Positions 17,866 through 61,232 of a DNA stretch of 64,000 nt are shown here, one piece after another. The notes beneath the pieces are model-generated. The model saw nothing but the letters and a program-made list of their open reading frames with translations. It did not search any database and had not been told where the DNA came from. The stretch's first letter is position 1. The number at the start of each line of letters is the position of its first letter. This DNA comes from Torpedo marmorata (taxonomy: Eukaryota): NCBI GenBank assembly GCA_977017645.1, contig OZ360223.1, positions 118,544,001-118,608,000 of the forward strand, given 5' to 3'. The position numbers were made by a program, and so were the translations under genes.

Positions 17866-19625
17866 TTAAAATATTTTTAAAAATAGCTCTGTTGAGAACT
17901 GACAGGAATGAAATGAGCCAAATGGCCAACTCCATGTCATGGTACATAAGAGGTCCTACTATATTGTAACGCTCATTGTCAGTACTCGGATATTATGTAA
18001 GATTAATATTCACAGGACATATTGAAAAGTTACTAGGGGGCTATTACATATATCCATTCTTTTTCAAGTGGAGCACTTGGAGTGGAATGTGCTTAACAAT
18101 AAATTTCTGACCACAGATCTTCCACTGAAGTGGAATAGCGATAATCCCATCAAAAGCTATGCACAACACATGTTGTTTGCAATCTCAGGTAATCTATATC
18201 TCACAGTTTTACTGTGACTTCTGCATTATTTCTCATTTGTATTTTAAACCTACTTATTGTATTTTTAAATGTGCTAAAAATATAACAGGAATAGTGTTTG
18301 TCGATGCTATGCATTCCTCAGGAGTATGTGTCCAGAAAATATTTCTATCTTGGTAACAGCAATGCCTTGAGGGTCTCTATCACAGCTTGTTACCATTTTT
18401 ACCTTGCAACAAAACTATTTCTTGAAACATTTGTGAACTAGGGGAATCTAGCTCAGGCTCATTACTGTCAACCAGGCAATGAGAGAGAAGAGAGGATCAA
18501 AACAATTGCTGCTGGTTTCTGAGGAACTGAGCTAAAGTATAGGTTTTACTTCCTTTGAATCTTCCCTTGAGTGTAACAGAACAATGGCCTGATACGTGAC
18601 CTATTTAAGGCACGTTCAAAATAGTGAGCTTGACCTTTCTGTATACTTTGAATGGTCTTCATTCAACCCCAAGGAGCTCTTCATTTCTGGATAAGCAGAG
18701 GTCTCAGGTTTCTCTTAATCAACAAAAGACAGATCTAACAGAAGAGATTCGAGGAATCAAGAAATAATTCTACATTTTCTATCGTGGATGGAGGGGGAGC
18801 AATCCTGCTACCTTGGTGATCTTTTTTTTGTTTCTGAGAGACCAGTCAATAATAAGCAAACAACGTCAGGCATTAGAAGGTAGGCTTTACAAGCTTATAC
18901 ATGCAATTTCTGATTCAACAGCAAGAAATGGATAATATATCTTAATATAAGTAGACGCAGTTTTTGTATCAATTAAAGTCGCTTAAATTGGATTTTTAGA
19001 GGTAGTGATGAAAAATGTTTATTCTTTGTGATAAAGTTTTCATGGAACTCTATTAATCATTTTATCATCAAGTAATTTCAATGTTAAAACTTTTTAATTT
19101 TAAGTCATTTAAAAAACCAGATTGTAAAAATGCGATGTCAAAGCATAATTAATTGCTGATTAATGGTAAATTTTACATGTGGCAATGTGCAAACAGTTTG
19201 AGTCAGTGGGGGATGGGGTATTTTTTTCATTGTGGAAGCAATTTGCACAGGAGTCACTAGTTGAGGTCAAAGAGAAATCTTAATGTACGGATTTTTAATT
19301 TGGATATTTAAATGGCCGACCAGCCAAGGACTAGCAGAATGGGAGACCTGTGCATCTTGCCTGTGTTTGACGGGTGCATTAGCTACCATATATTTTGGCG
19401 TATAAGTTGACCGGCAGATAAGTCAGGTCCCCATTTTCAGCCTAATTTTAATGGTTTTATCATATATCGGGCGTATAAGTCGACCCCAAATTTTCGGGCT
19501 GTCCGGGCCTCCCAGCAACAACACAAAATTTGTTACAATACCCAAATCGCCAAGTAACAAAGCTGTAAATTATGCAAGCAAATACAAAAAACAGTAAAAA
19601 AAAAACTTTGCTTCTGGTCAGGAAG

Positions 19626-19775
19626 ATGCCAAATGGAGCTGGGTCCAAGTCTTCAGTATCGGCTGCAGCCGGAGACGGCGACTCCATTCTCAACATCAGG
19701 TGCGGTGCCGTCCCCATCGAAGAAGTCGCATCGCTCCCAAAGTGTGCTTGGTGCAGGAACCATGGCTATGTGTCG
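19626..19775 (+). pseudogene. dmrt1: dmrt1 5' coding fragment (N-terminus and start of the DM domain), truncated
   Basis: ATG-MPNGAGSKSS..., then (+1 frame) SGAVPSPSKKSHR, then (original frame) LPKCAWCRNHGYVS. Compare vertebrate DMRT1 MPN...SKKSPRLPKCARCRNHGY(A/V)SPLKGHK. RLPK and HGY are DMRT1-type; DMRT2/3/A have RTPK and HGV. Confidence 0.85.
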
Positions 19776-20040
19776 GCTCCCGGGCAGGAGCGGCAACCTC
19801 GGCCTACCGGGCAGGAGCGGCGACCTCGTTCTCCCGAGTAGGAGCGGTGACCTCGTTCTCCCGGCAGGAGCGGGAACCTCGGCCTACCGAGCAGGAGCAG
19901 CGATGGCCTACCGAGCAGGAGCGGCGATGGCCTACCGAGCAGGAGCGGCGACCTCGTTCTCCCTGCAGGAGCAGGAACCTCGGCCTACCGAGCAGGAGCA
20001 GCGACCTCAGGCTCCCGGGTAGGAGCAGCGACTTCGGGCT
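19776..20040. repeat. GC-rich minisatellite, ~10 units of 24-27 nt
   Basis: Core gcaggagcggcgacctc followed by either ggcctaccga or gttctccc. Confidence 0.9.
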
Positions 20041-20219
20041 CTACAATTGTAGAATGTCTGGGTGGGTTATGGTGGTGCCTGGTGGTGCGGAGCGGCAGCG
20101 CCGGCGGTGGGGAGGTGCTTCCAGGGTCGTCTTATACGCTGAATCTACGTCGAGCAGTTTTTTTGAGTTGAATTTAAGGTCTCCAAAGTATATCTGGCGT
20201 ATAAGTCGACCCCCCATTT

Positions 20220-21016
20220 AAAAAAAAAAAAATAATTATTTAAAAATTTAAATCACTCAATAATACATATTACAAAATGCAAAATTATCAAAATACATGT
20301 GATATATTTTCACCCCCCTCCCTCCCACCCTTACTATTCTAATAAGATAGAAAGAAAGAAAGAAAGAAAAGATAAAGGAGAATGTCAATCTAAAAAGAAC
20401 ACGTATAAGCTAATTTTATTGTGGAACACAGGTTCGCCAGTCAGATCTGATATCCAGAGATCTTCAAATCCTTAAACCCACAGTTTTTATATAAGGGCTC
20501 CATATTTTCAAAAAGAAATGATATTTGTTACGTAAATTATAAGTAATTTTTTAAAGTGGTATAGCTGAATGAAGTTCTGCATGCCATCTCTCTAACCCTA
20601 AGTCTACATCAGACTTCCATGTAATAGCAATGCATTTCTTTGAAACAGCTAAAGCAATTCGCAAAAATTCTATTTGATACATATTTAATCTCATTTTAGT
20701 ACAAATTATTTTAATATCTCCAAACAAAAATATCATAGGATCCATTGGGAGTGTAATTCTTAATACTTTGCCTAAAAACTTTTTAACTTTCAACCAGAAA
20801 TCATATATCTTTGGACAAAGCCATGTAGAATGTACAAAAGAACCTTCCTCTCTATTACATCTAAAACATAAACCTGATAATGTCGGATTAAATTTCTTTA
20901 ATTTCTTAGGTGTTAAATATAATTGATGCAAAATGTTATATTGCACCAACCCATATCTAACGTTAATAATCTTCGTCATACTTTGTTTACATATTTCTTT
21001 CCAATGTTCCTCATCT
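20220..21016 (-). mobile_element. L1/Tx1-like LINE 3' fragment inserted into the pogo element
   Basis: ORF2 C-terminal CFRC..EGSFVHSTWLC motif (20551-20979). Exact 12-bp TSD GACCCCCCATTT at 20208-20219 and 21017-21028. Confidence 0.88.
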
Positions 21017-21391
21017 GACCCCCCATTTTTGAGAGATTTTTGAGGGTTTCAAGACTCAATTTATACGCCGAAATATACGGTATTAGTAAAAATTGATCTT
21101 GATCATAATCTGAGTAATGCAGAACCACCACTAACATTAGGCTAGAGAATCCAAAGTCTGCTTGCATTACCAACTTATTGCTCTCCTGCTTCCACAGGGT
21201 TATTTAGTTTCTAACATCTGAAAGAATCGATGAAACTTGAATATTCAGTGGACATACAAATAATTCTACCAACTATCATTGTGATTGAAAGTGTTTTAAG
21301 GACTAAGTCCATAAGACCAGAATCCCCAGATTTTTGAGAATTGAACAATGACTTGTGTTTATATCAGGAAAAATAAATTACGCTCTAAGTT

Positions 21392-48520: not shown

Positions 48521-49410
48521 TTCTAATATATCATGAGACAGAAAAAGAACTAATAACTAGAAAAAGATAAATTAAAAAAATATCCACAGTTGCAATTAGT
48601 GCAAAACAATGATGTTTCAACGGTGTAGGCAATAATGTAGGCAACCAAATGATGCCAACAAAAGTTAAAGATGGAATTGGATCCAAAGGTGAGTCACTTA
48701 AATTTGTCAGAAAAATTAGCAGTTCACAATTCAGTAAAAATGAGCCATGAGATTGACAAAGAAAATAAAAAAATAGGGTAAGAGTGCATATATGAATTGA
48801 ATTTTCCAAGTGGACTGCAAACATTTTTACATGTGTATTAAAGAAATAAAAAGATTAATGATTACAATTTGGGTCCTTTGGGATTGAATTAAATTGATGT
48901 TTTTATTGTCACATGTACCAAGATACAGGGACAAGCTTTGTTTTGCACACTATCCAAGCAAGTCAACCTATACTTAAATACAGCAGGTCGCTCAATAATA
49001 AAAGTAGATGGTGTAATGCTACAGCACATTAAGTAGTGCAGGGTACAGTGTTACAAAGTGTGGGATACAGAGAAACTACAGTTAAATAATCAAGAGTGTT
49101 GTCTTTTACCAATGAGAGGACCATTCTTGAGTCTGATAACAGCAGGGAAATAACTCACTTTGAATCGAGAGGTTTGTGTTTTAAAGCTCACTTACCTTCT
49201 GCACGATGTAAGGAGGGAAGAAGGGAGTGTGACCAGGGTTGGATGGGCACTTTAATATGCTGGAAGCTTTCCTGAAACAGCAGGATGTAATGACAGAAGA
49301 ATGGCAGAGTAATTAACAAATACCGTATATTTCGGCGTATAAGTCAACTCGCGGATAAGTCAAACCCCCTTTTTCAGCTTAATTTTAATGGTTTTATTGT
49401 ATATCCGGAT

Positions 49411-49620
49411 TATAAGTTGACCCCCAAAAAATCGCGATGCCTGAGATGCTGAGCGTTGACCGGCATATAAGTCGACCCCCAAAAAATCGCGATGCCTGAG
49501 ATGCTGAGCGTTGACCGGAATATAAGTTGACCCCCAAAAATCGCGATGATTGAGCTGCTGGGGGTTGACCGGCGTATAGGTCGACCCACAACGATCGCGC
49601 TGATTGAGCTGCTGGGCGTT
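49411..49620. repeat. Subterminal tandem repeat (~54-nt unit, ~4 copies) of the pogo element
   Basis: tataagt(c/t)gacccccaaaaaatcgcgatgcctgagatgctgagcgttgaccggc repeated. Each unit contains the TIR core TATAAGTCGAC. Confidence 0.85.
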
Positions 49621-49668
49621 GGCTGGAGGTGATTGTTATTTTGGAGGCTCAATTGAAACGACAAAAGT

Positions 49669-52397
49669 ATCAGAATCAGAATTTATTGTCATGAACAAGT
49701 CATGAAATTCGGTGTTTTGTGGCAGCATCATAGTGCAATTAACATTCATATTAAACATCTAACGACATTACTATAAAAAATTATAAACAATAGTGCACGA
49801 AAAGTAAGGCAGTGTCTTTGGTTCATTGATTATTCAGGAACCTGATGGCAGCGGGGAAGAAGCTGTCCTTGTGCCGTTGAGTGCTCGTCTTCAGGCTCTG
49901 TACCTTTTTCCCGATGGAAGCAGAGTGAAGAGGGCATGGCCTGGGTGGTGGGGGTCTTTGAGGATAGAGGCTGCTTTTTTAAGACACCGCCTCATGTAGA
50001 TGTCCTCGATGGAGTGAAGTTTGGTGCCTGTGATGTCACAGGCCGAGTTAACAACCCTCTGGAGTTTACTCTTGTCCTGGGAGTTGGCGCCTCCATACCA
50101 GGCAGTGATGCAACCAGCCAGAATGCTCTCCACGGTACACCTGTAGAAGTTTATGAGAGTCTTTGGTGACATACCGAATCTCCGCAGACACCTCACAAAG
50201 TATAGCCGCTGACGAGCCTTCTTTGTGATTGCATCAACGTGGATGCTCCAGGACAGATCCTCAGAGATGTTGACACCCAGGAATTTGAAGTTCTTGACCC
50301 TCTCTACGACTGAGCGCTCAATGTGGACTGGGTCGTGTTCCCCTGACTTCCTCCTGAAGTCCACAATCATCTCCTTGGTTTTGCTGACGTTGAGCTCAAG
50401 GTTGTTGCCATTACACCATTCAACGAGCTGATCTATCTCCCTCCTGTACGCTTCCACATTGCCGTTTGTGATTCTGCCGACAACTGTGGTGTCATCGGCA
50501 AACTTGTAGATGGCATTGGAATTGTGCCTGGCCACACAGTCATGGGTGTATAACGAATAGCGCAGTGGACTAAGCACGCATCCTTGGGGTGCGCCTGTGT
50601 TGATAATCAGTGAGGAGGAGACGTTGTTTCCAATTCGTACTGACTGTGGTCTTCCGATGAGAAAGTCAAGGATCCAGTTGCAGAGGGGGGTACAGAGGCC
50701 TAGATTTTGTAGCTTCTTGACCAGCACTGAGGGAATAATGGTATTGAAGGCCGAGCTGTAGTCGATGAAGAGCAGCCGTATGTATGAATTGCTGCTTTCG
50801 AGGTGATCCAGAGCTGAGTGGAGAGCCAGCGATATTGCATCTGCTGTGGAGCGATTGTGGCGATAGGCTAATTGCAGTGGGTCCAGATCTTTGCTTAGGT
50901 ATGTGTTAATTCTGGCCATGACCAGCCTCTCAAAGCATTTCATCACAGTAGAAGTTAGTGCTACTGGGCGGTAGTCTTTGAGGCAGCCCACACTACTCTT
51001 CTTGGGTACCGGGATGATTGATGCCCTTTTGAAGCAGGTGGGAACCTCTGACTGCCGCAATGAGTGGTTGAAAATGTACGTGAACACTCCGGCTAGTTGG
51101 TTGGCGCAGATTTTCAATACCCTGCCAGGTACGCCATCAGGGCCTGATGCCTTGCGAGGGTTCACCCTCTTGAATGATGTTCTGACGTCGCCCTCAGAGA
51201 CAGATATCAGAATCAGAATCAGAATCAGAATTTATTGTCATGAACAAGTCATGAAATTCGGTGCTATGCGGCAGCATCATAGTGCAATTAACATTCATAT
51301 TAACCATTCTAACGACATTACTATATAAAAAATTATAAACAATAGTGCACTAGTGTCTTTGGTTCATTGATTGTTCAGGAATCTGATGGCAGCGGGGAAG
51401 AAGCTGACCTTGTGCCGTTGAGTGCTCGTCTTTAGGCTCCTGTACCTTTTCCCCGATGGAAGCAGCGTGAAGAGGGCATGGCCTGGGTGGTGGGGGTCCT
51501 TGAGGATAGAGGCTGCTTTATTAAGACATCGCCTCATGTAGATGTCCTCGATGGAGTGAGGTTTGGTGCCCGTGATGTTACAGGCCGAGGTAACAACCTT
51601 CTGGAGTTTGCTCTTGTCCTGAGAGTTGGCACCACCATACCAGGCAGTGATGCAACCAGCTAGAATGCTCTCCACGGTACACCTGTAGAAGTTCACGAGA
51701 GTCTTTGGCGACATACCGAATCTCCGCAATCGCCTCACAAAGTATAGCCGCTGACGAGCCTTCTTTGTGATTGCATCCACGTGGATGCTCCAGGACAGAT
51801 CCTCGGAGATGTTGACACCCAGGAATTTGAAGTTCTTGACCCTCTCCACGACTGAGCCCTCGATGAGGACTGGGTTGTGTTCCCCTGACTTCCTCCTGAA
51901 GTCCACAATCATCTCCTTGGTTTTGCTGACGTTGAGCTCGAGGTTGTTGTCATTACACCAGTCAATGAGCTGATCTATCTCCCTCCTGTACGCCTCCTCA
52001 TTGGCGTTTGTGATTCTGCCGACAACTGTGGTGTCATCGGCAAACTTGTATATGGCATTGGAATTGTGCCTGGCCACACAGTCATGAGTGTATAACGAGT
52101 AGAGCAGTGGACTAAGCACGCATCCTTGGGGTGTGCCTGTGTTGATAATCAGTGAGGAGGAGACGTTGTTTCCAATTCGTACTGACTGTGGTCTTCCGAT
52201 GAGAAAGTCAAGGATCCAGTTGCAGAGTGCGGTCACAGGGTCCTCAGCCTTTTCAGGGATTCTTGTAAGCACTGTTTTGTTCTTCTTCTCAAAGCGGGCA
52301 TAGAAGATGTTCAGCTCATCGGGTACTGAAGCATCACAGCCGTCTATAGTGTTCACCCTCGCTTGGTAGGCTGTAATGGCCTGTACTCCCTGCCATA
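49669..52397 (-). mobile_element. Rex1/Babar LINE (424-aa ORF 49891-51165), itself split by another Rex1 copy
   Basis: The sequence gagacagatat(ca) at ~51205 continues as tcacagggtcctcagcc at ~52233, as in the uninterrupted copy at ~37795. Confidence 0.9.
51206..52227 (-). mobile_element. Rex1/Babar LINE nested inside another Rex1
   Basis: Has its own (ATTCTG)n tail at 51206-51230 and is truncated at LCNWILDF. Confidence 0.88.
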
Positions 52398-53696
52398 TGA
52401 GGCGAGTTTTAAATTAAAAGTGATAGAAATGGCCAAGAAAACCAACAACTGTGCTGCTGCAAGAAAATTTGAAATATATGAGAATTTGGTAAGAGATTGG
52501 AGGAAGAAAGAAGATACTTTAAGAAAAATACCAAAAAGGCAATGTTTGATGAGAAGAGGAATCACTCGTTGGCCAGAGTTGGAAAATCATGTCGCAGCAT
52601 GAGTACGTGAACAGAGGCAAGATTGCCACATAAAGTCACCCGAAATAAAATAAGAACATTTGCGCTGAAGTGGGCAAAGTCGCACCCAGAACTCAGTAAT
52701 GATTTTGAAGCTACAGTCGGCTGGTGCAACCGTTTCATGAACAGGAAAAATCTGGTATTACGACAAAAGACAAAAATTGATCAGAAACTACCAAAAGATC
52801 TTGATCATAAAGTTGTAAGTTTTCACCAGTTTATTTTACGTAACCGGCAGAAACACAAGTTTGCATTGGCAAATATTGGAAACATGGACGAAACCCCCAT
52901 GAATTTTGACATGATAGGCAATAGAACAGTGGAATGGAAAGGTGTGAAAACTGTGCAAACCAGGAGTACAGGCCATGAAAGGACCAGGTTTACCGTGGTG
53001 TTATCGTGCATGGCCGACGGGACAAAGTTAAGACCCATGGTAATCTTCAAATGTAAATTTAAACCTTAAATAAAATTCCCTGCGGGTATTTTTGTACATT
53101 TTCATGAAAAAGGATGGATGGATGGATGAAAATGGTGTAAAACTATGGATAGACAATGTGTGGAACAGGCGGCCAGGCGGTTTACGCAAGGAATGGAGTT
53201 TGCTGGTCTGGGATATGTTTCGTAGCCACTTAACTGAGAACACTAAAAGTAGATTAGCACAACATAATACATGGCGGTTATCCTGGGTGGTTTGCCGTCT
53301 ATATTGCAACCTCTCAATGTCTGCTTCAACAAGCCATTCAAATACCATGTGCATGAAGAGTGGAATACATGGATGTCGAGTGCATAAAAATCATTTAAAA
53401 AATGCAGGGCAATGTGTGCTGCATCGCTTGATGTGCTGTGTGACATCGTGCTCAAGGCATGGGACAAAGTGAAAGTAGAGACTATAATAAAATTGTTTAA
53501 AAAGTGCGGTATCTCTTGTGCAATTGATGGTACGGAAGATGATTTATTGTGGGACACTGACGACGAAGCTGAAGCCCCCTCATCAGATACAGACTGGGAC
53601 CCCTATGATGACTCTTTAAACAGTGAGACCCCGGATGTTCTTGCCGAGATCTTTGCCTCAGACGATGATAGCGAAAGTGATTTTGAAGGGTTCTAA
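52396..53696 (+). pseudogene. pogo/DDE_1 transposase pseudogene (first ~10 codons lie at 49641-49670)
   Basis: (EAQLKRQK)[22 protein letters not shown]; WPELE..F.ATVGWCNRFMNR; IGNMDETP; TGHERTRFTVVLSCMADGTKL.PMVIFK; GWMD; LLVWDMFRSH; acidic tail. Stops and frameshifts present. Confidence 0.92.
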
Positions 53697-55621
53697 ATGT
53701 GTTTTTGTTTTCAATAAAAATGTCAATGGAAATTTGTTGCAGTCGGGTTTTTTGTTGGTTTTTCAAGGGTCGACTTATACGCCGAATCGGGTTTTCACGG
53801 GTTGACTTATACGCCGAATCGGCGTTGAGCGGTTTTGGAGCTGATTTTAAGGTCTCAAAAGTATATCCGGCGTATAAGTCGACCCCCGTTTTTTGAGAGA
53901 TTTTTGAGGGCTTCAAGACTCGACTTATACACCAAAATATATGGTACTTTGGTTCTATCTTCACTGAGGAGAACACCAATTACTAGAAATGCAGAGGGAT
54001 GAAGTGTTTAATGAAAATAAGGAATTAATTAATGTTAGTTAAAAATAGTGGCAGGGAAATTAATGATACCAAAAGATGACAAATCCCCAGCTCATCATAA
54101 GCATTATAAAAGAAGTAGGTTGTTAAATTCCAAAATTCTGTGGGTAATTGAATAGCTCCTGCAGATTCAAGGGTGGCAAAAGTAACCTTTTAAATATAAG
54201 GAGATAGAGAAATCAGGGAACAGTAAGACGAACATCACGAAGCAAGAAAATGATAAGTCTATTAAAATGTTATCATTAGAACATAGAACATAGAAAACCT
54301 GCAGCACAATACAGGCCCTTCGGCCCACAAAGTTGTGCCGAACATGTTCCTACCGTAGAAATTTCTAGGCTTACCCAAAGCCCTCTATTTTTCTAACCTC
54401 CATGTATCTATCCAAAAGTCTCTTAAAGGACCCTAACATATCCGCCTCCACCACCGTTGCCGGCAGCCCATTCCACGCACTCACCACTCTCTGCATAAAA
54501 ATCTTACCCCTGACATCTCCTCTGTACCTACACCCCAGCACCTTAAACCCGTGTCCTCTTGTGGCAACCATTTCAGCCCTGGGAAAAAGCCTCTGACTAT
54601 CTACATGATCAATGCTTCTTATCATCTTAAACATCTCTATCAGGTCACCTCTCATCCTCCAAGGAGAAAAGGCCAAGTTCACTCAACCTGTTTTCATAAG
54701 GCATGCTCCCTAAACCAGGCAACATCCTTGTAAATCTCCTCTGCACCCTTTCTATGGCTTCCACATCCTTCCGGTAGTGAGGTGACCAGAACTGCACACA
54801 ATACTCCAAGTGGGGTCTGACCAGGTTCCTATATAGCTGCAACATTACCTCTCGGCTCCTAAATTCAATCCCACGATTAATGAAGGCGAATACACCGTAT
54901 GCCTCCTTCACCACAGAATCAACCTGCGCAGCTGCTTTGAGCGTCCTATGGACTCGGACCCCAAGATCCCTCTGATCCTCCACACTGCCAAGAGTCTTAT
55001 CATTAATACTATATTCTGCCATCATATTTGACCTACCAAAATGAACCACTTCACACTTATCTGGGATGAACTCCATCTGCCACTTCTCATCCCAGTTTTG
55101 CATCCTATCAATGTCCCGCTGTAACCTCTGACAGCCCTCCACACTATCCACAACACCCCCAACCTTGGTGTCATCAGCAAACTTACTAACCTATCCCTCC
55201 ACTTCCTTATCCAGGTCATTTATAAAAATCACAAAGAGTAAGGGTCCCTGAACAGATCCCCGAGGAACACCACTGGTCACCGACCTCCATGCAGAATATG
55301 ACCAGTCTATAACCACTCTTTACCTTCTGTGGGTAAGCCAGTTCCGGATCCACAAAGCAATGTCCCCTTGGATCCCATGCCTCCTTACTTTCTCAATAAG
55401 CCTTGCATGGGGTACCTTATCAAATGCCTTGCTGAAATCCATATACATTACATCTACTGCTCTTCCTTCATCAATGTGTTTAGTCACATCCTCAAAAAAT
55501 TCAATCAGGTTCGTAAGGCATGACCTGCCCTTGACAATGCCATGTTGACTATTGCTAATCATATTATACCTCTCCAAACGTTCATAAATCCTGCCTCTCA
55601 GGATCTTCTCCATCAACTTAC

Positions 55622-58266: not shown

Positions 58267-59414
58267 TCACATGACAGACCTGTGTGTATCGTCTGCGATT
58301 AGGTGTTTCTCTATGACATAGGTGACCTCATTAATCTTTGACTTAACTCTATAAGGTCCTGAAAATCTAGGCCTAAAAGGATTTGAATGGATGGGAAACA
58401 GAACTAATACGTTCTCACCAGGTTTAAAAGTTCTCATCTTGGCCTTTCGATCATACCAAACCTTAATTCTCTGTTGAGTGGCCTTTAAAGTCTCCTTTGC
58501 CATCTCACAAGCCCTATGCAACCGATCCTTAAATTTGGAAACATAATCTAACAGATTTAAATGCACATCACTATTAATCCACTGTTCTTTTAATAATCTT
58601 AAAGGACCTCTCACCTCATGTCCGAAAACTAACTCGAATGGACTAAAACCAAGTGATTCTTGGACAGACTCCCTCGCTATAAATAACAACAAATGAACCC
58701 ACTCATCCCAATCCTTTTCCTTCTCACAACAATAGGTTCTAATCATGTTTTTCAAAGTCGAATGGAACCTCTCCAAGGCCCCTTGACTTTCTGGATGGTA
58801 CGCAGAGGATACAATCTGTTTACCTCCCAGTCCATCAACCACTTGTTGGAAAATGCCTGACATGAAATTACTGCCCTGATCTGATTGAATTTCCCTTGGC
58901 AAACTTACCAAGGTGAAAAACTTTACCATAGCCTTTACAATTGCTTTTGCTTTAATGTTTCTCAGAGGAATGGCCTCTGGAAATCTTGTGGCTGCACACA
59001 TAATTGTTAACAAATACTCATTCCCCGCTTTGGTTTTGGGCAATGGGCCAACACAGTCCACAATCACTCTCGAGAAAGGCTCACTGAAAGCAGGGGTTTA
59101 CCCACCACCTGACAAGTGTTACAGGCCCAGCAAAAGCTTACAACCTCCCTTCTCAAACTGGGCCAATAAAATTGTTTCATTAACTTCCTTATAGTTTTCT
59201 TCATGCCAAGGTGACCACCTAAGGGTGTGCTATGAGCCAAAGTTATTATTTCGTCCCTATATACTTTAGGGTTCACTACCTGTTGCACTACTGCCCATTC
59301 TTCATTGGCAGGAACATCACATGGTCTCCACTTTCTCATCAACACCCCATCTTTTTCATAATAACCCACTGGCACCTTTTTAATCTCCTCTTCAGAGAGA
59401 ACCTTATCCCTCAC
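58267..59414 (-). pseudogene. Gypsy integrase (frameshifted)
   Basis: AH....GHLG...CWACNTCQ zinc motif; VDCVGPLP, SDQGSNF, YHPESQGALER; GPY motif. Confidence 0.92.
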
Positions 59415-59612
59415 CTCAGCAAGATCAGGATCCTCCTTTTGGCTTGCTATTAGCTCCTGTCAGGATAGTGACAAATCTGTGCCTTCAGGTGTCTTATCAG
59501 TGGATGGGTGTAACACAGGAGATTGCTCAACCTTTTCCAGGTGTTCTTGATTATCACCTACTTTTTCTTTCACCAATTTAGTTTCCACTGCCTTCTCTGC
59601 AGTGACATTTTT

Positions 59613-61232
59613 CTAAGACATGGCCCTGGTTATGGCACAGGCCGGATAAATATCAGAGTCTTTCTCTGACTTATCAATGACTGGCTTAGTGGTCATTCGC
59701 ACTGCAGGAACGACTTTACCCTCAGCCAAGTCATTGCCTAGCAACAGTGAGACTCCTTCTACTGGCAACTCTGATCTCACTCCTATTATAACAGGTCCTT
59801 CCACCAAGGCTGAGTCCAACCCTATTTTGTGCAAAGGAATGGACTCAACATCACCCCCAATTCCTTTAATTAAATTCATTTCACCGGTGTCAGTAGCTTC
59901 ACAAAATACCAAGACACTATCTAACACAAGTGACTGAGCAGCTCCAGTATCTCGCAAGATTTTCACTGGAACTTGTTTTGATCCTGCCTTAACTGAAAGA
60001 ACACCATCAGTCACAAAAGGTTTAAATACATCCCTAAACTTGTCAGTAACTTTATCTCCTTGCTGGGTGTTATGCCTCTTCTCACTTTGAATACAAGCAT
60101 TAGGTGTTGCATCCTTTTCTCTCTTCTTTTTCAACACTGGACAGCTTGCTAGCATATGACCAGCCTTCCTACAGTAGTGGCAAATGGGACCCGAAGGGTT
60201 TTCCCTTTTCCACTTTCCTTCATCCATTTCCTTAACACCACTTCCAAATTTACTTTCCACTTGCTTGGGATTATCCACAGTGACCTTTTGGAAAATTCTT
60301 CCTGACGTCCACTTAGGCTTGTGGGTTAAAGCATATTCATCTGCTAACTTAGCTGAATTTTGCCAAGTTTTCACCTCCTTTTCATCTAAGTATGCCTTAA
60401 TATCCTCAGGAACACACCTTTTTATCTCCTTAATTATTATCAATTCTCTCAATTGATTGTAATCATTGTTTACCGCCTTAGATGTGCACCACCGGTCAAA
60501 ACACACAACCTTTTCATAGGCAAACTCTGTGTAAGATTGGGTTGCTGATCTTTTTAAATTTCTAAACTTCTGTCTATAAGCCTCTGGAACTAACTCATAA
60601 GCCTGGAGTATAGCCTTCTTCACCGTTTCATAATCAGCAGCTTGCACTGTGGTAAGAGTAGAATAAGCTTGCTGAGCTTTTCCTTTTCTTACACTTTGTA
60701 ACATAAGAGACCATTGGTCTTGTGGCCATTTCAATTTCACAGCCACCTTCTCAAAATGTTGGAAATACTTATCTATTTCCGCCTCCTCAAATGGAGGAAC
60801 CAACCTAAGTTCTCTACTAGCCAAAAACCTCTCAACAGGATGACGAATTTGATCTTGGTGCTCTTCTTATCTCCTCTCATTTTCCAACTAAATCTTTTCC
60901 AGCTCACATTGCCTAATTTTCTCCTCATTCTCTAATCTCTTTTGTTCTCTGTCTTCTTCCAAGTCTAATCTCTTTTGTTCCAATTCCACTTTCTTTAGTT
61001 CCAACTGTATGTTTTCAGAAGGTTTACCCTTGGGAAACTGCTCTAACACGCTCTCCTCAAACATTTTTCCTTTTATATAATATTTGACAATTTCTCTCAC
61101 AATCTCTGCCTTTTTCATTGATGGTTTTACAGAAGCAATGCCCAACTCTGTTGCTATAGCCACTAACTGTTCCTTTTTCACCTTTTTTAAAGTATCAGGT
61201 TCAGGTGATTTCAAAAAAATTTCTACATCCAC
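59613..61232 (-). pseudogene. Gypsy gag (SCAN-like capsid region, CCHC knuckle) + aspartic protease, frameshifted
   Basis: YF.HFEKVA...WP..QW..., AYELVPEAYRQKFR, CHYCRKAGHMLASC, LRDTGAAQS, LLLGNDL. Confidence 0.9.

Follow-up and report, generated by a model that had tools for sequence, protein, structure and literature searches.

A survey of animal Pack-TIR elements, in which host DNA lies between the terminal inverted repeats (TIRs) of a DNA transposon, reported four multicopy cases (1.4%), with an example present in three copies (Tan et al. 2021, PMC8277862). Its filters required at least 90% identity, 80 to 120% of the parent length, and a unique top hit, and its main text nowhere uses the word “shark” (PMC8277862). 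Passer elements, of the pogo superfamily, range from 1.6 to 4 kb and encode 400 to 500 amino acids with two DNA-binding domain (DBD) motifs (PMC9976928). Here, we analyze a 64-kb stretch of the Torpedo marmorata genome (contig OZ360223.1; “the window” denotes this whole stretch), in which an initial annotation had proposed that positions 19386 to 21080 are a pogo-type transposon carrying the 5' end of the sex-determination gene dmrt1. The flagged element is a real multicopy Pack-TIR copy. It probably belongs to a non-autonomous pogo/Passer-type family with dmrt1 inside, which likely goes back to one capture, spread in trans, and travels as a neutral passenger.

Captured dmrt1 DNA and its copies in the genome

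The genome searched comprises 6.22 Gb in 4,566 contigs. A Pfam DM profile search found dmrt1 at one locus, L043 (C2:246.43 Mb), whose exon-1 peptide has shark and ray DMRT1 as its best matches and also matches human DMRT1 in PDB 4YJ0. Two further DM genes, to judge by sequence and order dmrt3 and dmrt2, lie 0.23 and 0.36 Mb downstream. The inner DNA of the flagged element matches this single dmrt1 locus (E 1e-56), and dmrt1 is the best match of the fragment at both the DNA and the peptide level, so that the cargo had been correctly recognized. The window copy corresponds to L043 positions 1222 to 1549 minus 44 bp and 1 bp, followed by a 157-bp jump into the intron-1 minisatellite (1702 to 2373).

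A DNA search of the genome returned 3,127 candidates, and 39 non-self sequences among the 40 scored are 88 to 91% alike. A 24-nucleotide pattern across the 44-bp deletion junction has 3,340 exact genome matches (1,680 on the plus and 1,660 on the minus strand), while reversed-pattern controls have none; half of the DM module has 1,550 exact matches. Because the junction pattern recovers 23/30 and 16/28 known copies, the counts suggest 4,400 to 5,800 copies with the junction. Among the first 30 half-module copies on contig C1, 28 have both TIRs and 27 of these 28 have TA on both sides; the copies sampled there are 682 to 1,858 nucleotides long (median, 982). The fragment is therefore multicopy, lying between the same TIRs at TA sites that differ from copy to copy, and the proposal of a non-autonomous family that spread captured dmrt1 exon-1 DNA genome-wide is borne out by thousands of dispersed copies. 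Loci L123 and L124 are identical including their flanks, and hence some copies are segmental duplicates. Elsewhere, two Pack copies lie about 0.5 to 1.5 kb apart (G000:C1:9672065 and 9672554; L099), as nested insertions or local hops.

Structure of the element in the window

Inverted-repeat comparison places the arms of the element at 19384 to 19410 and 21056 to 21082 (27 nucleotides each including the TA; 89% complementary). TA-flanked TIRs are thus present as annotated, with a length of 25 rather than 20 bp. The TA target-site duplications occupy 19384 to 19385 and 21081 to 21082. The left TIR (19386 to 19410, plus strand) is a young Passer-type end identical in type to that on autonomous copies, and the Passer-type-derived left end with its subterminal GCGTATAAGTCGAC motifs (19386 to 19490, plus) is 88% identical to bases 5 to 107 of the autonomous copy L075. 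It is followed on the plus strand by the captured dmrt1 5' leader (19500 to 19625; L043 1222 to 1350; 103/118 aligned bases), by exon 1 from the ATG at 19626 up to the 44-bp deletion (19626 to 19698; 70/73 bases), and by exon 1 beyond this deletion (19699 to 19779; 72/81 bases), with the 1-bp deletion inside. The last piece encodes LPKCAWCRNHGYVSA with three of the eight zinc ligands, the number given in the initial annotation, and stops at the CGGCTC microhomology of the 157-bp deletion. Against the Pfam DM domain (PF00751), the window copy matches positions 3 to 15 only (E 0.026).

From the ATG, the frame reads MPNGAGSKSSVSAAAGDGDSILNI, twelve shifted codons, and then LPKCAWCRNHGYVSA. The 44-bp and 1-bp deletions cancel, and therefore LPKCAWCRNHGYVS is in frame with the ATG, while the SPSKKSHR piece is out of frame; the ATG and the MPNGAGSKSS start of the annotated reading hold, and SPSKKSHR has to give way to LPKCAWCRNHGYVS.

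Downstream lies a GC-rich 27-bp minisatellite of 10.3 units (19773 to 20041, plus), which matches the dmrt1 locus. It had been noticed behind the coding piece, and it is itself captured dmrt1 intron 1 (L043 1702 to 2373). Next come a leftover from an older Passer family's 3' untranslated part (20056 to 20072, plus; 17/17 bases to L156), a GC block (20073 to 20113) for which no source match was found in 43 non-Pack loci or the dmrt1 and dmrta1 flanks, and the right subterminal region of a Passer-type transposon (20115 to 20219, plus; 81% to positions 1711 to 1809 of the autonomous element). The remaining right end (21017 to 21080, plus) includes the right TIR (21056 to 21080). The annotated stretch is indeed one element, but nearly half of it (20220 to 21016, minus) is a nested, 5'-truncated L1-like retrotransposon (zf-RVT, E 7e-4, below the Pfam cut-off). 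This insertion has its own target duplication of 11 to 12 bp (20208 to 20219 and 21017 to 21028) and is private to the window copy, as 0/29 other copies compared carry it there.

The donor region and the capture

Host dmrt1 intron 1 contains, 60 bp past the exon-1 donor, a very homogeneous GC-rich 30-bp minisatellite of 22.7 units (L043 1702 to 2373). Unique intron-1 DNA leading into it is retained in less-deleted copies, which rules out spliced mRNA as the template and leaves genomic DNA or unspliced RNA. The distal DM stretch missing from the window copy has five candidates in the genome, all accounted for by the dmrt1 gene and four less-deleted copies. The search for longer DM pieces proposed earlier thus yielded four dmrt1 copies, which reach all eight ligand positions.

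The left capture junction pairs ACC-CCCAA of the transposable element (TE) with GCC-GCCAA of dmrt1, and microhomologies are also found at the 44-bp (TC) and 157-bp (CGGCTC) deletions. No match to the autonomous element or to the Pack ends exists in about 42 kb around dmrt1 exon 1. Sequence motifs upstream of L043 position 1110, presumably a GC box, a CCAAT box, and an E-box, were not captured. The captured source region is CpG-island-like (observed/expected ratio, 0.84 versus 0.40 for the window).

Over the cargo, the copies are about 93% alike to dmrt1 (column majority, 253/273). The host and Narcine bancroftii have two DMRT1 features in common that are absent from other rays and sharks, a lost Gly-Val and the residue order PSA/QSA. 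The copies retain ancestral dmrt1 states (Gly-Val and the Ser of PSAS) that are gone from the host gene, and so the capture is older than those changes. It may predate the Narcine split, if the 6-bp loss happened once, a soft date because this loss falls within a 6-bp tandem in which the copies show frequent slippage.

Passer-type vehicles with young and old ends

A decayed full-length copy of the autonomous partner, split by a long interspersed nuclear element (LINE), lies in the window at 49323 to 53944 (plus) and has the same TIRs as the flagged element. Its transposase remnants (about 52399 to 53696) match BrkDBD (E 1e-13), HTH_Tnp_Tc5 (E 8e-6), and DDE_1 (E 2e-4); together with the DD35D motif of the partner, these matches uphold the pogo assignment. 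A search with the partner protein gave 16,529 genome candidates; among the 150 scored, 25 sit within open frames of 452 codons. The autonomous copy L075 is 1,867 nucleotides long and has a DD35D motif (35 residues separate the second from the third Asp). Autonomous copies have a mean identity of 96.3% over 36 pairs, a TA duplication, TIRs shorter than 30 bp, and an open reading frame (ORF) of about 441 amino acids with two DNA-binding motifs; both TIRs are present at 9/11 loci. With its many intact 441-amino-acid ORFs, this family is possibly still active.

The young TIR has 23,063 genome matches. The first 30, all within the first 9 Mb of one contig, represent 22 elements, 13 derived from the transposase and 9 belonging to the Pack subfamily called stage E below, 7 of these with both ends; all nine non-autonomous elements in this sample thus derive from the dmrt1-cargo lineage. 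The old TIR has 109 genome matches, and the first 30 represent 24 elements, of which 21 have dmrt1. The other three (L149, L156, and L164) are internal-deletion derivatives of an older Passer transposase, which is 79 to 86% alike to the young one. The first 100 bases of the older Passer are 89 to 91% identical to old-end copies and 78% to the window copy, and old-end copies match it also in its 3' untranslated part. It was therefore the older family that caught dmrt1, and the lineage carried young ends later. L085 and L137 are intermediates between the old and the young ends.

The rest of the 64-kb window consists mostly of LINE fragments, with decayed gag and integrase frames resembling those of a long-terminal-repeat retrotransposon at 58270 to 60866 (minus).

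Deletion series and phylogeny of the copies

The copies fall into stages of increasing deletion. In stage A, three old-end copies keep exon 1 through the eight ligand positions to CNLI, followed by intron. Stage B (L055) combines the 44-bp deletion with the whole zinc module, and stage C keeps half a DM module, as in the window copy. Stage D, to which 23 of 88 classified copies belong (from a set of 90), retains old ends but lacks the DM part. Stage E, the youngest sampled subfamily (nine elements), has only the leader, the ATG, and an expanded minisatellite between ends up to 95 to 99% alike to the young autonomous element. Leader and minisatellite are the parts retained by every subfamily, and the leader itself is trimmed in copies by 21-bp, 42-bp, and further deletions. 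The 9 Mb that hold the nine stage-E elements contain three matches to the 44-bp junction; extrapolated from this one small region, the whole family may exceed 10,000 copies.

A tree of 85 cargo rows, which leaves out 4/88 classed copies without both landmarks and has only rough support (the bootstrap had not settled), places host dmrt1 among the old-end copies. All new-end copies split off together (100/94), and most copies with the 42-bp leader deletion are nested inside the new-end group (98/95). The three longest copies lack the old-Passer 3' piece that shorter copies retain; they therefore do not show the founder in its exact form but make up a branch sister to it. The same absence rules out a strictly linear deletion series.

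Among the less-deleted copies, L053 (1300 to 1575) is open from the dmrt1 ATG through all eight ligands, with a stop after CNLITG, and L052 (1301 to 1900) is open from the dmrt1 ATG for about 200 amino acids, with the first Cys lost. The four longest dmrt1 copies end before ERQRVMAAQ, the recognition helix. This C-terminal helix mediates high-affinity DNA binding by the DM domain (PMC1931443), and no dmrt1 copy that we found reaches it.

Constraint, decay, and occurrence in other sequencing runs

Neither half of the coding cargo shows constraint when each non-CpG change is counted once: codons 1 to 15 have 11 synonymous and 27 nonsynonymous changes (58 copies, p 0.86), and the DM half has 5 and 14 (28 copies, p 1.0). 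Of the 28 position-sampled copies in which the start could be located, only 8 retain an open frame in the DM half. An apparent signal of purifying selection (omega 0.15 for codons 1 to 15; 24/29 copies in frame) came from copies picked by likeness to the window copy. It was rejected because shared variants had been counted repeatedly, and once-only counts with position sampling erase it. No shelter from CpG decay was detected in 25 copies (cargo, 0.102; TE end, 0.108), and private non-CpG divergence is 2.1%, equal in cargo and TE end. CpG ratios of 5.9, 2.2, and 4.4 compared differently chosen sets and were not used. No protein-level escape of the host is seen, as its DMRT1 N terminus has not evolved faster than that of other rays (5 changes versus sawfish; others, 4 to 10), and a weak search among 61 database candidates found no protein with the Pack junction.

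The cargo of L018 occurs in 17 listed sequencing runs from nine studies and eight organisms, one of which may be the host species itself; 11 rows have a share of at least 0.42, and none of the listed runs is recorded as RNA or as sexed. Ungapped contigs bridge the 44-bp junction, with at least 31 letters on each side, in 4/4 runs examined from organisms B, C, and D (X2 record 10, X6 records 18 and 19, X7 record 26, and X12 record 1), and X2 and X7 have thousands of contigs on the cargo stretch. The coverage in X6 and X12, including a depth peak at the ATG region in X12, says nothing for or against expression, as both consist of contigs whose RNA origin is a guess.

A second capture: dmrta1 in a hAT-like family

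Thirteen of the top 20 DM matches are dmrta1 copies in another element (L035 to L050 and L057 to L065), the parent of which is L034 (G000:C2:256.478 Mb). The TIR of this element begins CAGTGGCGGATT, and its cargo, at about 92% identity over up to 1,030 bp, comprises exon 1 with a complete DM domain and intron 1. An 8-bp duplication (7/8 or 8/8 matching) flanks 8 of the 9 copies with both ends, and such a duplication with a short TIR is what we take to be the mark of hAT. The family has 120 candidates, with 39 non-self sequences of the 40 scored at 91 to 96%. Among 17 copies picked for the best DM score, an open frame covers all eight ligands plus the helix in 10, the exon piece is preceded by an acceptor-like site and followed by the native donor in 15, and none (0/17) has an in-frame upstream Met. 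Some dmrta1 copies have also grown a GC-rich 33-bp minisatellite.

Genome profile searches gave 3,768 candidates for DM versus 82 for Forkhead and 115 for the HMG box, two control families in which no comparable spread was seen. Further DM matches lie at G000:C2:256448128 (positions 1 to 47; 30 kb from dmrta1) and C79:10330649 (positions 1 to 38). A three-DM-gene cluster at C22 158.07 to 158.18 Mb (L031, L038, and G000:C22:158178434) resembles a paralogous dmrt3/dmrt2 block.

Origin of the family and alternative explanations

The origin of the family can be pictured as follows. An older Passer element would have lost its transposase gene and acquired its new inside when template switching brought in the CpG-island region of dmrt1, with the capture join made at short microhomology. 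The transposase of autonomous copies would then have pasted the Pack element into TA sites, and copies would have been gained by donor-site repair, as is established in cut-and-paste biology. Microhomology deletions in master copies (44, 1, and 157 bp, and later the whole coding part) may each have founded a subfamily. Younger Passer ends, acquired by recombination or stepwise change, would have opened a second wave, and the copies would subsequently have undergone methylation and the decay common to repeats.

The copies are most simply read as neutral passengers and are likely inert. The sex-determination link and the RNA or peptide effect implied by the initial annotation find no footing, in that the coding part lacks constraint and was progressively lost. 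Several points weigh against neutrality and this history. Neutrality does not explain why 9/9 young-end and 21/24 old-end non-autonomous elements come from the dmrt1 cargo, or why another superfamily took up a second DMRT gene when the two control families, Forkhead and the HMG box, have not spread. In L052 and L053, the frame starting at the ATG is still open across most or all of the zinc module. The constraint tests average over copies and would therefore miss a few exapted ones, and the exchange of ends is inferred from two intermediates, L085 and L137.

The cargo might instead help the transposon in cis, with the leader and the GC-rich minisatellite acting as open germ line chromatin, as a recombination-prone spacer, or as a shelter from silencing, since silencing would hit dmrt1 too; this would explain how the lineage outlived one transposase wave and came to dominate among the non-autonomous copies of the following one. 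The prevalence of the cargo among the sampled non-autonomous elements (9/9 and 21/24), the keeping of leader and minisatellite by every subfamily, and the CpG-island-like source (0.84 versus 0.40) fit such a benefit, and a conflict model has been described for maize (10.1101/777037). However, cargo and TE end have decayed equally at CpG, the leader is itself losing sequence (21-bp, 42-bp, and further deletions), and a founder effect would give the same pattern. The samples are also small, the young-end one being the first 9 Mb of one contig, and the maize study, in the portion available to us, reports no copy-number gain (10.1101/777037). We therefore regard a benefit in cis as unlikely.

A wider proposal has DMRT 5' regions as privileged cargo in this lineage, a DM-domain gene having been captured by each of two DNA-transposon superfamilies. 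The dmrt1 family would have stayed the non-autonomous partner of Passer through two waves thanks to germ line help from its leader and intron minisatellite, with about 10,000 copies feeding small RNAs or cassette exons into the sex-development network; this proposal, too, has a low probability.

Action of the copies on the host, by small RNAs or antisense transcripts that tune gonadal dmrt1 or by recruitment of a long-DM copy (with the dmrt1 zinc module or with the complete dmrta1 DM domain of the hAT-like family) as a dm-W-like gene or exon, is quite improbable. The copies and dmrt1 are about 93% alike across the cargo, two of the four long dmrt1 copies are open from the ATG, and hAT-like copies combine open eight-ligand frames (10/17) with an acceptor-like site and the native donor (15/17). 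Yet the dmrt1 copies break off ahead of the recognition helix on which high-affinity binding depends (PMC1931443), none of the 17 hAT-like copies has an in-frame upstream Met, coding constraint is missing, host DMRT1 is no faster at its N terminus than in other rays, and, in a weak search, the Pack-junction protein was absent from the 61 database candidates.

That no mobilized capture took place, and that we are dealing with a one-off insertion, a processed pseudogene in a resident element, a segmental duplication, or an assembly artifact, has hardly any chance of being right: L123 and L124 do share their flanks, but thousands of copies are dispersed on both strands, with differing flanks, TA at both ends, and intron content, and the 44-bp junction is bridged in 4/4 independent runs.

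Comparison with known systems

We found no earlier report of a dmrt1 Pack family in the open-access literature; Repbase or Dfam may hold a consensus without the link to dmrt1 noted. Like Xenopus dm-W and medaka dmrt1bY, the family joins duplicated dmrt1 to transposon DNA (PMC9250109, PMC2820524). In those systems, one functional, sex-linked duplicate received an exon or a promoter site from the transposon (PMC9250109, PMC2820524), whereas here the transposon is the vehicle, with many copies, no recognition helix, and no constraint. A complete DM domain (zinc module plus recognition helix) is found in neither the window copy nor the four longest dmrt1 copies, and on present evidence the family is not an analogue of dm-W or dmrt1bY. 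The sex-determining gene of the group is described as unknown (10.1101/2025.02.26.637739). As the donor is a central vertebrate sex-development gene with a paralogue captured separately, cross-talk between transposon silencing and dmrt1 is directly testable in these species. Repeat masking would hide dmrt1 exon 1 in them, and dmrt1 and dmrta1 probes, primers, and read mapping would likewise be confounded.

The autonomous partner agrees with Passer (PS) of the pogo superfamily in DD35D, TA, TIRs shorter than 30 bp, and a length of 1.87 kb, while its copy number is in the thousands here and the flagged element has no transposase, unlike described Passer elements (PMC9976928). As in plant Pack-MULEs and Pack-TYPE elements and in bat Helitrons, non-autonomous DNA elements capture and amplify 5' gene fragments with introns; superfamilies and hosts differ, and the bat cases are rolling-circle rather than TIR elements (PMC4224331).

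The closest likeness is to animal Pack-TIRs, in which host DNA with a distant, unique parent also lies between TcMariner/pogo or hAT TIRs, breakpoints show microhomology, and the multicopy cases were moved by transposition and are GC-rich (PMC8277862). With its 44-, 1-, and 157-bp deletions and 87 to 96% identity by segment, the element falls outside the “young” cut-offs of Tan et al., which select young cases and do not define the Pack-TIR class. Filters of this kind would miss such a family, and its rarity in print may therefore be partly a detection limit. The present family differs from the surveyed cases in having no fewer than 3,340 copies, a series of subfamilies, and two waves of transposase (PMC8277862), and its copy number is about three orders of magnitude above that found in the one animal survey. 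Because the donor gene, the older and younger partners, and the intermediates are all preserved, the birth of a family resembling miniature inverted-repeat transposable elements (MITEs) from a host gene can here be traced step by step.

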